A stretch of DNA of 64,000 bases from a phage, in sequence record PX068454.1. The stretch is one strand, 5' to 3'. This document shows, one piece after another, positions 12,349 to 64,000 of this stretch (position 1 is the stretch's first letter; the number at the start of each line of letters is the position of its first letter). The translations under genes were made by a program, and so were the position numbers. The notes beneath the pieces were generated by a model. That model was not told the origin of the DNA, ran no database searches, and worked only from the letters and a program-made list of their open reading frames with translations.

Positions 12349-12549
12349 ATGGCTGATTTTTGTAAAGACTGTTCTGAAGAGTTGTTTGGTTTTGACTGCA
12401 AAGATTTGGAAGGTCTGATCACTGAGGATCAGTGGAAGGAAGGCTATGCAGCACCTGTTATTTGTGAAGGTTGTGGCTATACCTATGTTGACCATAAAGG
12501 TAAGCGCGTCAAGCCGTCTGAAGATGGGGCATGTTGGGAGTATTACTAA
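12349..12549 (+). CDS. small zinc-ribbon-like protein
   Basis: 66-aa ORF with CKDC ... CEGC pairs. Confidence 0.5.
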   Translation: MADFCKDCSEELFGFDCKDLEGLITEDQWKEGYAAPVICEGCGYTYVDHKGKRVKPSEDGACWEYY

Positions 12550-12553
12550 CTAT

Positions 12554-12587
12554 AAAAAGAAAGGGGCCATTTGGCCCCCTTTTTTAT
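12554..12587. terminator. bidirectional rho-independent terminator
   Basis: AGGGGCCATTTGGCCCCT hairpin flanked by A-run upstream and T-run downstream, between convergent genes. Confidence 0.7.
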
Positions 12588-12597
12588 CTACTCCTTG

Positions 12598-15500
12598 TTA
12601 AAGAGAGAAAGTCGCGTAGGCTCCCAGACGATACTGCTGGTCACCAGGGAACATAACACCTATAGAGGCTGTCCCTAGAATCCTGCCTTCCTTTCCAGAC
12701 TCCATTCTGAACCCTACCCATCCTGAACTCCTTGCAGCCTCGATGTTGTCGCTATACCCGAAAGTGGCAAGATCGTCAACACCAGCCCCAAACAGCAACT
12801 GAAGCTGACTTCTCGGAAGCCCTATAATTTCAGGAATATACGCACCAAAGTACACCATCTGCCCTACCTTAGGACCGCTGCCGTACTCCATCGGTTTGCT
12901 TGTAGAGAAAGTCTTCATACCAGAAGTACCTGCCGGATTAGGGTATGCCCCGTTTGTTGCTGTACCTATCCACATTCTCCACTGTGGTGCCATCTGTTTG
13001 ACAGTAAAAGATGTTGAAGACGTTTTGCGACCTGCATCATCAGTAGCTACAAACGTTATAGTGACATTACCAGGAGCTTTAAATGTTACCAGCCCTGTGG
13101 TAGCATCCACTGTTGCAATGTTGGTATTACTGCTTTCCCAAGTCTTTCTAATCCCAGACACATTGGAAGGGGTAATAGAAGGTTCCTGCATCTGCAGTTT
13201 ACCACCTACAATCCCTATGCCGTTACCGGGGTTATACAACACACCAACTTCATCTATAATGTTACCTGCCTTGAGACTATACTTCCTTGAGAAGTTGTAA
13301 GTTCCGTTATAAGTGTGTGTCCCTGAGAAGGTGACATCTGCTTTTCCGTAAGAGATGCAAACCAAAGCATACTTCCTGTCAGGCAACGTTTCTCCAGTCT
13401 CTGGGTGAGTTTTACCTACCTGGAACACACCCGGGTCAGTGGAGTCGTGGCTATCACTAACGGAGCTTGGACCACCCATCAGCTGTGACAAGCAATTCCT
13501 TACCCATGTCCAGTTATTATCGCTGGAGAAGTCCACAGTCAAATCAAACACAACCCACTCATTTGGCTTCCACACAGGTGTTGTAATGGACTTGCCTACG
13601 CCACCCCCTTGGAGTGTTGCCGACTGTTCGGTGATCAGGGCTGCATAGGCCAGAGTCCCTAAACTCAGAGTCTGGCTTGCTGTCCTTACTACCTTAGAAT
13701 CAGCATCTGTGAAGTTGTTGATTATTTGGAATGTGCCATAAGTGTTTTTACAGGTAATTCTGGCGTTCAGTGTGTCAATCTTCCTCACATCTGCCATAGC
13801 AGCGTTAGACACAGAGAAGTCAGAAGCTTTAGCTGAGTTTGCCGCAACAGCAGGATCAACGTTAAGAGTTGCGTTGAACTGACAGGCAGGGGTAACCAGC
13901 AGCTTGTTATCACCTATTTGCTTCCATGAAACACTTTGAACAGGAAGATTCCATTTAATACCTGAGAAAACTTTAGCAACCCTTGGCCCCAAAGCTCCAG
14001 TCCTGTTGTCTTTACAGCACATAGACATGGTGATCGTTGACGGAGCGGCTTGACCAAACAATTGCTGCGCTTTTGCAGAGGACATAGTGTAGAAATTGTC
14101 CTTAACAAACTCATCAGCAGCTAGAGATCCGTCAGCCCTCCACCACTGAACCTGATACCCTGTTTTATCCCAGCCTCCGACCTGCTTCAAGTCCTCCCAA
14201 GAGATTTCCAGATCCCCCGTGGTCGGGTTGATTGCAGCGGTCCCTGGTGTACCGGATGACCACAATGGGATATCAAACCACGCAGGTTTAACAGATTGCA
14301 CTGCATTAGGACCTATTGCAGCAGCAAGTTGTTGACCCATCAGCACGCGAGCATCTTTCACCAGGCCCCATTCTATCATAGATCCAGAGTAACCTTCTTT
14401 CTTGTAGGCAGAGGATCCGTTCAAATGGATGAGCCTGCTGCAGTCGAAGCCATACGCTCCACCACCGTTAGGATCTGCAAAGTTGGTTATGATTCTATCC
14501 CTAATATTTTTCCATGCCCTACCTCCAATCTCGTAGTCATGGTCATAACATCTTTGCAACGTTGTCCAGCAAATGATTGCCATTCTTCTGCCACCTGTGA
14601 ACCCGAAAGCGCCGTCATTCAGCTCTTTCCACAGGTAACAGTTGGTTGTCCACATAGCCCTGTGGATATTGAACCAGTTTATAGATTTAGCGGAGTTGTT
14701 CCACTGAGTTCCGGGTAATTCAGGCCACACTGCATTGACTAGCATGTCCTCTGTACCGGCATCCATTAAGAAACCTCTTACCTTCTTGCCCATACCTGCC
14801 CTGTCTTTAGCAATCCAATTGCCAAACAGTCTCAGTTTTGGACCATAAACAACATCCTCTGGGTGCTCAAAAGAGACATACTTTAAGTAGATTGTTGGGT
14901 CACCGTGGGTGCCATCACAAACACTTTTGTGCATGTTTTCGCCAAGGTCTAGACGAAGCCCCGTCACTACTTTAGACGTGTCGGTGAATTTGTCTGTTAA
15001 GTCAAATTCATACCACCACCACCCACCACCTAGCATAAATTTCTTGCATCGCACAGCGTCTGTGTCAGATATTCTCTTATCCCCTGCAAAAGGTGAATCA
15101 GCAAACTGATAGTGCAGAGCAGTCTCAAATAGGTGGGTGGAAGTTCCGTTCTCTGCAAGAACTTGCTTACCTATCAGATCGCACTTAATGATCATCACAA
15201 CACGCTTGTATCCGTTTGTTACCGGAACTTGCATAGATATGGATGTTCCATCCATGTTCGATCTTAGATCACTCATGATGATATAGGGGTCGACAGCGTT
15301 ACCTAAAGTTTCAGGCCCTGGAATTATCTTGTATTTCTTGACCTGGCCCATAAATCTGTCACTGGCGTAAGTTGCAGCCTCAAAACAAGAGCCACCACCA
15401 GGTAATTCTCCGGGTCCCCAGAAAAATGCCCCATAGCAGTTATAGAACCACTTATTAGGGTCGTATTTGTTCTTGAAGGTCTGGACCTCGTTGGCCTGTT

Positions 15501-60002: not shown

Positions 60003-60102
60003 AGGTGCTAGGTGGTGGAATCGAACCACCTATGTATTCAACGACTACCTCGTCTATTTTCAGGATTAAAAATCCTCGCCCTTGCCAAAGGGCTTACCTA
60101 GC
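60003..60102 (-). tRNA. atypical tRNA-like gene (about 100 nt; UUU in anticodon-loop position; about 31-nt variable region; no encoded CCA)
   Basis: Perfect 7-bp acceptor GCTAGGT/ACCTAGC, D-arm GCCC/GGGC, T-arm GGTGG/TTCGATT/CCACC, only 4-bp anticodon stem, extra hairpin GACGA-GGTAG-TCGTT. Confidence 0.4.
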
Positions 60103-61670: not shown

Positions 61671-61859
61671 TCAACAGATTCCGGCCTTATCCCTCCTGTC
61701 TGCGTATTCTTTAATCGCAACCTCACCTGCATTGGTAACCAGATCTTCAAAGTAATTCTCAAGCTCCTCGTCAATGTCCGGTGACCAGCTCTTTTTCCTG
61801 TCAGTGTGAATTGCAGACTTGTTGAACTTATTACAGTTCTTTGCTACCGGATTGTTCAT
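61671..61859 (-). CDS. hypothetical protein
   Basis: 62-aa ORF. Confidence 0.4.
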   Translation of the reverse strand: MNNPVAKNCNKFNKSAIHTDRKKSWSPDIDEELENYFEDLVTNAGEVAIKEYADRRDKAGIC

Positions 61860-61869
61860 TAAGCTCTCC

Positions 61870-62448
61870 TCAACGTTCGTAGTAAATCTTATTCAACATT
61901 ACCTCATCGTTTGCAGAAAGGATATCAAGATATGCATCACCAAATCTGCCTGCAACAACCTCTGCATGATACATCACTTCGTTAACATCGTCAAGAGTGA
62001 TAACCGGATGACCATATCTTTCTGAATATTGCCTCAGGGTGCGATGTAACGAGTCGTCATCATATGCAGACTTTTTAATATCACAAACACGACGAATGGC
62101 CTTGATGTCGAAAAAACCTGTGCGATACCACCCAAGAAAAAAGTTCCGTGTAGTGTCAACATCTACATCAATACCATTAAGAACCTTATCTACAAGATAG
62201 CTGTCATCCTTTGGACTAGCGTCCTTAGTGCGAATGTAGTTGCCATCTTTTCCAGGTGATAGCTCCTTCTCATCACCAACCTGCATGCCATCATTTGGCG
62301 GTGTTAGCCACTTATCCGGATGCTTACGATCACTAGCGTTAGAATGATTACGCTGGAAACCTGGCTTCCACTTGAAAGTTTTCTCCATCTGTTCTTCATT
62401 CTGATAACGTTTTGCAATCTTTTCACTGGCATCTTTGCGTGAACTCAT
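61870..62448 (-). CDS. hypothetical protein
   Basis: 192-aa ORF with strong SD AGAGGAGG. Confidence 0.6.
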   Translation of the reverse strand: MSSRKDASEKIAKRYQNEEQMEKTFKWKPGFQRNHSNASDRKHPDKWLTPPNDGMQVGDEKELSPGKDGNYIRTKDASPKDDSYLVDKVLNGIDVDVDTTRNFFLGWYRTGFFDIKAIRRVCDIKKSAYDDDSLHRTLRQYSERYGHPVITLDDVNEVMYHAEVVAGRFGDAYLDILSANDEVMLNKIYYER

Positions 62449-62559
62449 AGCAGCCTCCTCTTCAAGTTATAGAAAAACTCACTGTATCGCTTTGTAACGA
62501 GCTTTTCTATCAAACTGGTGCGATTGCCTTACTTGGTATAGTTTATATAGCTGTGGAGC

Positions 62560-62815
62560 GATTTAGGGGCCTTCTTGTCAGTTTCCACACATAAACTTTA
62601 TCCGAACTCGCGCGGGAGGCTCTCAACCGACTCCTTCCGGCGCTGGCAAGCTTTCGTCGGTGGTCCACATTAGTGCTCGGCCTTTGGCCTGCGCTATCGC
62701 TTCGCTCCCACACATGTTAACAGGCCTGCATGTATGCACTTCTGTCATTGTGTGCACTACGGAGGCCCGGCATCTCGCCCCTCGTAGGCGAGTGCCAATG
62801 AAGGGCCGACACTAC
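62560..62815. other. GC-rich structured intergenic element B (candidate structured RNA or cis-element)
   Basis: No ORF; nested hairpins e.g. GGCCC-GCA-CTCGCC(CCTCGTA)GGCGAG-TGC-GGGCC at about 62752-62800, and GTGCAC...GTGCAC palindrome. Confidence 0.3.
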
Positions 62816-62839
62816 CAATAATAAGTAATAAATTTAAAA

Positions 62840-62915
62840 CATGGTACTTAGGATCTAGTATATTCTACATAAGTTAAGTATATGTACTTTAGTACCATAA
62901 GTACTAGATCTTTTA
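62840..62915. repeat. AT-rich block with inverted repeats (GATCTAGTA / TACTAGATC; GGTAC / GTACC)
   Basis: Direct reading; extreme AT content next to palindrome array. Confidence 0.45.
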
Positions 62916-62952
62916 TTTTTTATTATTTAGTTATTTTAGTTATATTCTTTAT

Positions 62953-63035
62953 GTGTCCGTATCACGGACAGTTAGTGTCCGTATTACGGACAGATGTGTC
63001 CGCGTGACGGACAGTAGTGTCCGTATCACGGACAG
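62953..63035. repeat. array of four 17-bp palindromic sites TGTCCGT-nnn-ACGGACA at 21-22 bp phasing (iteron/operator-like)
   Basis: Sites at 62954-62970, 62976-62992, 62997-63013, 63018-63034; first and fourth identical, others differ only in the central 3 nt or by one half-site position. Confidence 0.7.
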
Positions 63036-63109
63036 TTACTAACCTCTGTTCCATAGTGAACATAAAACATACAAATCCTTATAGTACAGATGTTTAAGTT
63101 TTTACTGGT

Positions 63110-63460
63110 CTAACCAGTTGTTGACATTCGAATAACTTCTTCTGGTGGCAAAACTTTGGAAAATGTGCATCTTTTACCTCTCCCTTGTGTGGATATTTCA
63201 ACCACTCCTGCACATTCTAAAGTTTTAACGCACGCTGCTGCTTTTGTTTTCTTTATCCCAACATCTGCTGCAATTTTCCTTGTGCTGGGTGTGAAGCGTG
63301 AATTTTCTCCAAGCTTATACCAGTTGTGCAGGTAGCAGTATACGATCTTGTCATATAAGTCAAGAACAACAACCTCCCCAGTTGTGTCATTCAAAACTTT
63401 TGACATAGACAGTATTTCAAGGGGGACTTTAAGATATAGCAGCTTATCCCCATCTTTCAT
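63110..63460 (-). CDS. winged-helix / HTH DNA-binding protein
   Basis: 116 aa; HTH-like TRKIAADVGIKKTKAAACVKTLECAGVVEI; SD AGGAG; adjacent to palindrome array. Confidence 0.6.
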   Translation of the reverse strand: MKDGDKLLYLKVPLEILSMSKVLNDTTGEVVVLDLYDKIVYCYLHNWYKLGENSRFTPSTRKIAADVGIKKTKAAACVKTLECAGVVEISTQGRGKRCTFSKVLPPEEVIRMSTTG

Positions 63461-63507
63461 ATCTCCTGATTCTCCTTGTGTGGCAATTTTCTTTAAAATA
63501 GCAGGGA

Positions 63508-64000
63508 TTACTCCCCGCTGTCAATAGCAAGACTCATTGCAATACGGTATGCCTCTTCTAATGGTAAGAGTCTCCCCCACACATCCCAACCGACATCAAA
63601 CTGCCTGCCAAACAACTGCTGTGTGGTTCCGTGAGCATGACCGAACAGTTGGACTGATCCGTGAGGCTTTCTGTTCCACTTTGCAAACTGGTAATGGCTC
63701 ATACAGATCAAATTCTTGTTGTGGCGAAGCTCGTAATAATCTACAACCTCATGACCGAACTCTTTCATAATTCTGACAGTCGTCCTTGTGTCATGGTTAC
63801 CACGAACAAGAATAATATGTCCGTTCAACATATTTAGAACATCTGGAAGCAATTTGTTGATATTCTTATCATTAGTGCACGCAATATCCCCCAAGTGAAA
63901 CACAGTGTCTGCAGGTGACACAACAGAGTTCCACTTGGTGATGATTCCCGCATTCATACTGTCAAGATTGTGATCATACTGAGATCTGTGTTTTTGACAT
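63508..64000 (-). CDS. metallophosphoesterase (calcineurin-like), 5' end beyond window
   Basis: FHLGDIA and VRGNHD motifs; reading frame stays open upstream of the track start 63957 to the window edge. Confidence 0.6.
   Translation of the reverse strand, partial: CQKHRSQYDHNLDSMNAGIITKWNSVVSPADTVFHLGDIACTNDKNINKLLPDVLNMLNGHIILVRGNHDTRTTVRIMKEFGHEVVDYYELRHNKNLICMSHYQFAKWNRKPHGSVQLFGHAHGTTQQLFGRQFDVGWDVWGRLLPLEEAYRIAMSLAIDSGE

Follow-up and report, generated by a model that had tools for sequence, protein, structure and literature searches.

Close to the end of a 64,000-nucleotide stretch of phage DNA (sequence record PX068454.1; hereafter the window) lies a non-coding spacer in which four phased palindromes, an extremely AT-rich tract and a GC-rich block stand next to a gene for a 116-residue winged-helix protein. 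By its sequence the window belongs to a Vequintavirus (rV5-like) phage of E. coli: positions 61800-64000 share 97-99% identity with about 120 Vequintavirus records, phage ECP26 (MK883717, 99.3%) being the closest. We propose, at a probability of roughly 0.6, that the locus (about 62596-63524) serves Vequintavirus as a lambda-type iteron replication origin and encodes a minimal initiator of its own. This reading is favoured because the array is unique in the genome, abuts its most AT-rich DNA and is constrained in a protein-contact pattern, and because arrays of the same core lie in the O-like initiator genes of other phages, to whose winged-helix class the adjacent protein weakly belongs. An earlier note on this DNA had left an iteron-type origin with its initiator, a partition-like site and a stacked operator side by side; our analysis favours the origin, keeps the operator as a weaker contender and found no support for a partition-like site. 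Compared with known lambda-type origins, what is new would probably be an initiator reduced to its DNA-binding domain, iterons placed just outside its gene and an added conserved folded element.

The palindrome array and the AT-rich tract

Matches to TGTCCGTNNNACGGACA were found at 62954-62970, 62976-62992, 62997-63013 (with one mismatch) and 63018-63034, in accordance with the four TGTCCGT-N3-ACGGACA copies at 21-22 bp spacing that had been noticed before. Their start-to-start spacing of 22, 21 and 21 bp (mean 21.3 bp) corresponds to about two helical turns. Shuffled versions of the window held 0.12 matches on average and none of 100 reached four. For genome-wide scans the window was completed with the flanks of the 99%-identical phage ECP26 to a hybrid genome of about 135 kb, and a search of it for extra copies, as the earlier note had advised, found no further site with up to two mismatches. 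Half-site 7-mers were not otherwise enriched in this genome (about 16 expected and 13 found, 7 of them within the array). Seen from the winged-helix gene, which is on the - strand, the array is downstream, beginning 75 bp past the stop codon.

Constraint was compared among 13 genomes whose winged-helix proteins are 85-100% identical, with the percentage of variable alignment columns as the measure (Table 1). Judged from the alignments, both the array and the AT-rich tract are under strong purifying selection across these related phages, constrained like codon positions 1-2 of the flanking genes, while the stretch between stop codon and array appears free of constraint. In the genomes compared complete arrays always have four sites at invariant spacing. 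Positions 1, 2, 4, 5 and 6 of the half-site (TG.CCG) are invariant and changes fall at positions 3 and 7 and in the 3-nt centre; 5 of 13 distinct site variants are changed in one arm only, and wobble signals within the palindromes indicate opposite strands. This pattern of variation favours base-specific protein contacts over a hairpin. Coding does not account for the array either, as the earlier note had stated, since the overlapping open reading frames (ORFs) are short and unconserved, the period is not a multiple of three and the variable positions track the palindrome and not codons. No sigma-70-like or rV5 'late' promoter overlapping the array was found in a consensus scan, which an unusual promoter could escape, or in the tables of the rV5 authors, which list neither promoter nor terminator in the spacer that holds it. 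Two GenBank records label the array merely 'repeat_region', and no paper naming iterons together with any Vequintavirinae name was found among the literature matches listed.

The array directly adjoins the AT-rich tract, a candidate DNA-unwinding element that varies as little as the array itself. Its extreme A+T content, already remarked upon in the earlier note, was confirmed, and positions 62853-62952 are the most AT-rich 100-bp window of the whole genome. The inverted repeats seen there earlier did not hold up as structure: as a DNA fold they gave z = -0.94 with 33 of 200 shuffles folding equally well, and a cruciform was rejected as no better than shuffles. The tetranucleotide GTAC occurs four times in the 132 bp, an 18-fold excess (30 per kb against 1.7 per kb window-wide), and four GTAC-centred motifs lie at 62841-62910. 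The tract also contains GATCTTTTATTTT (62907-62919, + strand), which matches the 13-mer consensus of E. coli oriC, GATCTnTTnTTTT (PMC4451416), exactly and is alone in the window in doing so; as it lies inside such AT-rich DNA, this is weak evidence. A scan and the rV5 authors' tables gave no convincing promoter or terminator in the tract. A likeness of GTACTAG motifs to the operator of TrpR, and one of GTGTC to sites of T7 primase, were considered and dropped, as no test supported them.

A few database records of the locus deserve mention. Two Logan contigs (L111 and L112) that carry the winged-helix gene stop inside or just past the array, probably by assembly breakage at the repeats, and short-read assemblies would tend to lose the locus. 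CP057073.1 (137,565 bp), a PLSDB 'plasmid' from an E. coli assembly of pooled cattle faeces, is a complete rV5-like genome whose spacer (within 102218-102786) is 96.5% identical to that of the window; it may reflect a carrier state or contamination. At the locus 18 MG0656xx records named 'Campylobacter phage' with C. jejuni as host are 96-99% identical to E. coli rV5-like phages, and their host labels look doubtful.

Table 1. Features of the locus and of the related episome region, with the share of variable columns in the alignment of 13 genomes (episome rows are in episome coordinates)
Feature	Position	Strand	Variable columns	Basis or remark
GC-rich (55%) structured element, within block 62540-62820	62596..62815		23% (GC-rich block)	compensatory pairs, episome homology
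AT-rich tract, candidate DNA-unwinding element	62821..62952		9%	81% A+T over 132 bp
Four 17-bp palindromes TGTCCGT-N3-ACGGACA, candidate iterons	62954..63034		7%	motif match, uniqueness, constraint
Stretch from stop codon to first palindrome	63036..63109		31%	
116-residue stand-alone winged-helix protein, rV5 ORF 79 / gp075, candidate initiator	63110..63460	-		Pfam, PHROG
Sigma-70-like promoter (TTGACA, 18 nt, TATTTT, with TG)	63495..63524	-		consensus scan only
Codon positions 1-2, flanking genes			5-11%	
Third codon positions			23-35%	
Episome: structured element	12387-12688			
Episome: AT-rich repeats	13006-13118			
Episome: six palindromes CGGAAATATTTACCG	13235-13515			first three 23 bp apart, others wider

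The winged-helix protein and arrays with the same core

The small helix-turn-helix (HTH) gene that had been noted beside the palindromes is a real 116-codon ORF with DUF6945 and HTH_36 matches, but its strand had been missed: the gene is on the - strand with the sites downstream, so that the palindromes do not lie in its promoter. Pfam gives DUF6945 at 28.5 bits (cut-off 28; 1.7e-6) and HTH_36 at 24.8 bits (cut-off 25; 1.9e-5), with weaker matches to LexA, CodY, TrmB and MarR-type HTH domains and none to Phage_rep_O. phrog_12838 ('replication initiation protein') was founded on this protein, which also has weak matches to the initiator PHROGs 8102 (4.7e-6), 428 (1.7e-3) and 270 (4.3e-3); many records annotate it as 'putative transcriptional regulator'. 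Within the phage collection it is restricted to 119 Vequintavirus records. A word-indexed search of 5.8 billion proteins returned only relatives of at least 85% identity, and an exhaustive HMMER search of 1.84 billion representatives gave nine matches, all weak beyond the family itself. The distant ones fall into two groups, the N-terminal HTH_36 domains of O-like or DnaD-like phage initiators and the DNA-binding domains at the C-terminus of GIY-YIG/T5orf172 nucleases. Among solved structures the uncharacterised protein 4RO3 comes closest, with CodY as the next match in the PDB; structure prediction reached a pLDDT of 40 (shallow family alignment). The 192-residue protein encoded downstream was considered as a separately encoded C-domain of the initiator and rejected, as it has no detectable similarity to initiators.

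The palindrome core recurs in other viruses. Among 2.9 million viral contigs the palindrome was found in 104 stretches, nearly all of them single sites, and a lone copy can be put down to chance. TGTCCG-N5-CGGACA sites stand side by side in just 17 unrelated viral contigs of about six lineages (49-70% G+C), all of which have three to seven sites at 20-25 bp spacing, mostly 22 bp. Each of these 17 arrays overlaps an ORF of 130-420 codons or sits at its 3' end; in the ORFs examined the array lies just past the N-terminal HTH-type region or at the 3' end. Since the period of about 22 bp persists in coding sequence though it is not a multiple of three, the constraint acts on the DNA. The array-linked ORFs match PHROGs annotated as 'replication initiation protein' or 'replication initiation O-like' in 11 of 13 cases tested and in four of the six lineages (families 270, 345, 391, 428, 678 and 8102). 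Several of these initiators are short. That of contig L127 has 133 residues and its ORF ends just past the array, which is followed by relatively AT-rich DNA and then a separate gene, a layout close to that of the window. A profile of the array-linked N-domains aligns with the 116-residue protein at 11.7 bits in HMMER and with 75% probability in hhalign (E 2.6e-5, residues 55-99), covering helix 2, the recognition helix and the wing. These alignments weakly suggest that the protein shares a domain class with the array-linked initiators without being close kin.

Further repeats were seen during these searches. One 46.6-kb viral contig (L086, IMGVR_UViG_3300042691_021677) has three exact but dispersed copies of TGTCCGTNNNACGGACA at 2303, 2650 and 3405, which are 347 and 755 bp apart. 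Beside the iteron arrays of unrelated phages we observed short direct repeats of about 11-bp period (L126 4861-4893, L130 6507-6548 and L137 2030-2058), such as GGTCTGGAGAA and TTAGACTCTTC in about three copies each, which may be a second class of origin repeats. In bacteria many contigs of metagenome-assembled genomes (L142-L215) from Myxococcota (Kofleriaceae) and Burkholderiales hold TGTCCG-N5-CGGACA pairs or short arrays at 20-bp spacing. We set the bacterial arrays aside as general support: they are mostly two-site pairs in high-GC Myxococcota with no initiator-like ORFs, and may be a different repeat family or the sites of a host regulator.

In the sister genera the same architecture appears with other parts. 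Mydovirus KB57 and Seunavirus SSE121 have neither the 116-residue protein nor its palindrome; at the head of the same gene cluster they carry three TATTCC-N6-GGAATA palindromes at 24-bp spacing (KB57, L122 1945-2160; SSE121, L123 2148-2350), which adjoin the 100 bp where the locus is richest in A+T (80-81%, with GATCT (AGATCT) motifs). Beside them is a different small gene with weak, sub-threshold HTH_36-type matches. The KB57 product (KB57_095, 122 residues) also matches the initiator PHROGs 186, 270 and 428, and SSE121 gp228 has weak matches to a winged helix and to the T5orf172 nuclease domain. Because both palindrome and small gene differ in the sister genera, site and protein would have been swapped together while the architecture was kept. 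In KB57 the palindromes lie just upstream of the small gene, in its promoter region, and autoregulation is possible there.

A GC-rich element and its counterpart in 13-kb episomes

On the far side of the AT-rich tract from the array lies a GC-rich block that was absent from the earlier note. Two of its parts, 62609-62671 and 62761-62813, share 86-87% identity with the only large non-coding region of circular E. coli 'plasmids' of about 13 kb (NZ_CP020521.1 (L216), NZ_CP178698.1, NZ_CP035869.1, CP148565.1 and NZ_CP043822.1, besides the metagenome contigs L228 and L233). These circles encode major capsid, tape-measure, baseplate and HTH proteins with no terminase annotated, and look like small phage-like or satellite-like episomes.

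Six compensatory pair changes were found in three helices of the element, and 10 of the 16 differences fall within such pairs. Helix H2 changes from CAACCGAC/GTCGGTGG to TTGCTGCC/GGCAGCGG with three pairs altered on both sides, helix H3 from GGCA.TCTCGCC/GGCGAG.TGCC to GTCA.TCTCTCC/GGAGAG.TGAC with two compensatory pairs, and helix H1 from GGGAG/CTCCC to GGAAGA/TCTTCC with one pair in the divergent phage contig L221. The pairs come from two or three lineages only and each of them counts as one event. RNAalifold chose a G-U-rich alternative to helix H2 for its consensus, and the helices were verified by anchored extraction. Judged by these substitutions the block is a conserved structured nucleic-acid element whose helices are kept by compensatory change; wobble pairs within it disagree on the strand. 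Rfam gave nothing credible in the spacer at gathering or permissive thresholds (only rli43, at 26 bits against a cut-off of 100), and no protein remnant was detected in the block. We rejected the idea that it is the decayed C-terminal half of an initiator gene, as blastx matches fell only on palindromes. A candidate + strand promoter for the element, the extended -10 TGGTATAGT at 62534-62542, is lost in the Aya lineage.

The order of parts on the aligned strand of the episome matches that of the window: structured element, AT-rich repeats and then phased palindromes (Table 1), after which come - strand genes including one for an HTH protein. A 303-residue candidate O-like initiator (phrog_428 and phrog_391, E about 5e-4) is encoded beside the non-coding region. 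Because this region is the obvious place for an origin in a 13-kb circle, the GC-rich element is tied to an origin-like module and probably belongs to the same module as the array and the AT-rich tract. Possible roles include a single-strand priming signal, a primer or control RNA, or a boundary of unwinding.

The origin weighed against other readings

If the locus is an origin, the 116-residue protein would be made early from its own promoter directly upstream (annotated as P76 in the rV5 reference record) and its dimers would bind the four palindromes on one face of the DNA, two helical turns apart. The nucleoprotein complex, similar to the lambda O-some, would open the AT-rich tract by means of negative superhelical stress, and the T7-gp4-like primase-helicase of the phage, which has its own Pol A as well, or else the host primosome would load directly on the bubble. 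We propose direct loading because the protein has no helicase-recruiting domain. The GC-rich element may guide loading, either by signalling priming on a single strand or in the form of a primer or control RNA. It is tempting, if rather doubtful, to divide the labour further into a two-part origin, where the initiator only opens the AT-rich tract and the element shared with the episomes recruits priming. The episomes, with their own initiator and iterons, would then be satellites or relatives that use rV5-like priming machinery, and TGTCCG-N5-CGGACA would be an old iteron 'word' that very distant O-like initiators use again.

The lambda origin consists of four 19-bp imperfect inverted repeats inside gene O that are bound by O dimers beside an AT tract that unwinds, and two iterons plus this tract suffice for unwinding (PMC7466680). 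The Vequintavirus locus resembles it in its four tandem dyad repeats (here 17 bp), its AT-rich tract on one side and the same-core arrays inside O-like genes of other phages, and by a weak class match the winged-helix protein encoded at the locus may be of the initiator class. The locus differs in that the repeats lie 75 bp past the stop codon and not within the initiator gene between its two domains, in that the protein lacks the C-terminal domain by which a P-like loader or DnaB would be recruited, the phage having a T7-type primase-helicase and Pol A of its own, in an iteron sequence unrelated to that of lambda (and no Phage_rep_O match), and in an AT-rich tract about three times longer. 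Plasmid iteron origins share the repeat spacing of about 22 bp and the order of iterons, AT-rich and GC-rich DNA. RK2 oriV has iterons, AT-rich 13-mers and a GC-rich segment, and RSF1010 oriV has iterons, GC-rich and AT-rich segments and the priming hairpins ssiA and ssiB; by analogy with RSF1010 the conserved folded element, which lies next to the candidate unwinding region, could signal single-strand initiation. In plasmids the iterons are direct repeats to which Rep proteins with two winged helices bind as monomers, whereas here (compared with RK2, F and pPS10) the sites are palindromic, the protein has one winged-helix domain and there is no cluster of DnaA boxes. The primary origin of T7 and oriF and oriG of T4 are transcript-primed and need a promoter but no sequence-specific initiator or iterons. 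As in our case, these phages are virulent, bring their own replisome and have an AT-rich element for unwinding, and RNA running into the tract might prime if the GC-rich element were transcribed on the + strand, but no conserved promoter was found for that element.

The surroundings of the locus are also in accordance with an origin. In gene orientation the - strand genes run from an AAA_33 kinase through a phosphoesterase to the 116-codon gene (63460..63110), then across a 660-bp spacer to a gene for a 192-residue protein (62448..61870), to small genes and seven tRNAs, and further on to the lysis and terminase genes, the large-terminase gene being about 4 kb from the locus. About 1.5 kb past the window end gene direction flips, and beyond this point lies a cluster of genes for RNA ligase, Sir2, DNA ligase, exonuclease, RNase H, polymerase and ribonucleotide reductase. 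The locus is thus near the divergence of the two longest transcription units and at the head of the replication-gene cluster, which supports the origin reading. The global minimum of GC skew coincides with this divergence point.

Several observations weigh against an origin. Our support is computational, and that the protein binds the array, that the tract unwinds and that replication initiates there we infer. Palindromic sites are typical of operators as well. The similarity of the protein to initiators is weak, with HTH_36 just below the Pfam cut-off and the profile scores given above, its domain class also occurs in GIY-YIG/T5orf172 nucleases, it resembles the winged-helix domains of repressors, and it is a single DNA-binding domain in which no helicase- or loader-recruiting domain was detected. 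It was the motif itself that picked out the 17 viral contigs, and they cover no more than about six lineages. In bacterial genomes an initiator-like ORF was near TGTCCG-N5-CGGACA pairs in only 6 of 74 cases, and the motif is therefore not exclusive to initiators. DnaA-box-like 9-mers (TTATCCACA, at most one mismatch) are scattered over the whole window without a cluster at the locus; their excess (41 against about 20 expected, mostly on the + strand) probably stems from composition or codon use in the - strand genes. As transcription direction changes at the skew minimum, the GC and AT skew signal is confounded, and the rV5 genome paper, which sought the origin by skew analysis, found only transcription switches. 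A second candidate locus lies outside the window, in a 2.5-kb non-coding region (ECP26 MK883717.1 about 120.2-122.7 kb; L119 42232-44723) to which two of the genome's five most AT-rich windows belong. Its repeats comprise four occurrences of GTTTACGC with a 15-bp period, several copies of AAGCAGGGCAACTAT and ATAGTTGCCTTGCTT that run both ways, one direct repeat of 20 nt and one inverted repeat of 18 nt, both exact. Rfam has no match in the region, which could be a second origin or a pac site.

Among other explanations an operator array deserves the most attention, even if we consider it improbable. The 116-residue protein would be a transcriptional regulator, as many records label it, and four dimers would repress, activate or roadblock transcription between the early three-gene operon and the genes for the 192-residue protein, tRNAs, lysis and packaging. 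As in the stacked operators of lambda OR/OL, P22 and LexA/CodY-type winged-helix proteins, there are palindromes, a nearby small HTH gene of dimeric type and adjacent sites that would permit cooperativity; the weak LexA, CodY, TrmB and MarR-type matches and the place of CodY as the next structural match agree with such a role, the arrangement in KB57 makes autoregulation plausible, and since a scan found no intrinsic terminator between the winged-helix gene and the downstream genes a roadblock is plausible as well. An operator does not readily explain why the array is downstream of its gene, overlaps no promoter in the scan or in the rV5 tables and is the only site in 135 kb, why its four sites are evenly two helical turns apart beside an equally constrained 81%-AT tract, or why the arrays of other phages are inside initiator coding sequence, where a promoter would be unexpected. 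A regulatory effect of the array would not exclude an origin, because initiators commonly autoregulate too.

The array, the GC-rich element or both could also be a pac or other cis site, shared by episomes that borrow a helper terminase, which we judge quite unlikely. Here a circularly permuted genome, that of a headful-packaging phage, has a unique cis element about 4 kb from its large-terminase gene, satellites copy the packaging sites of their helpers, and the episomes encode capsid, tape-measure and baseplate proteins without an annotated terminase. Yet the adjacent protein is initiator-like, lies in an early operon, has no terminase match and is not of small-terminase type; the palindromes differ between phage and episome, which share the structured element only; the compensatory changes suggest a folded single strand and not recognition of a duplex by terminase; and the arrays of other phages lie in initiator genes. 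Least of all do we expect the palindromes to act in the transcript, whether to stabilise it as part of the 3'-untranslated region, to mark sites of processing or to attract an RNA-binding protein. Every unit can fold into a stem of 7 bp closed by a 3-nt loop, and the array is in the 3' region of the winged-helix transcript with no terminator before it, but the arms are invariant instead of co-varying, the one-arm changes break a pair in 5 of 13 variants, the wobble signals disagree on the strand, the stems are not followed by a T-tract, and RNA offers no obvious rationale for a strict two-turn spacing and a constant number of four.

The origin reading has practical consequences. rV5-like phages belong to the E. 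coli phages most frequently isolated and find wide use in cocktails for biocontrol and therapy, and a candidate of about 900 bp with a named protein and a defined site makes the question of their origin directly testable. If confirmed, the locus would be a part for engineering these phages, for example in origin-bearing shuttle constructs, and would mean that a DNA-binding domain alone can suffice as the initiator of a lambda-type iteron origin, in a virulent phage with a T7-type helicase-primase. The folded element common to the phages and to capsid-encoding episomes hints at an undescribed link to phage-like replicons. Apart from the locus, ARAGORN reported a 99-nt 'tRNA-???' with the four-base anticodon (atcc) at 60004-60102 of the window (- strand), inside the seven-tRNA cluster; one GenBank record omits it, another lists it as tRNA-OTHER, and its Rfam tRNA score is only 37 bits.

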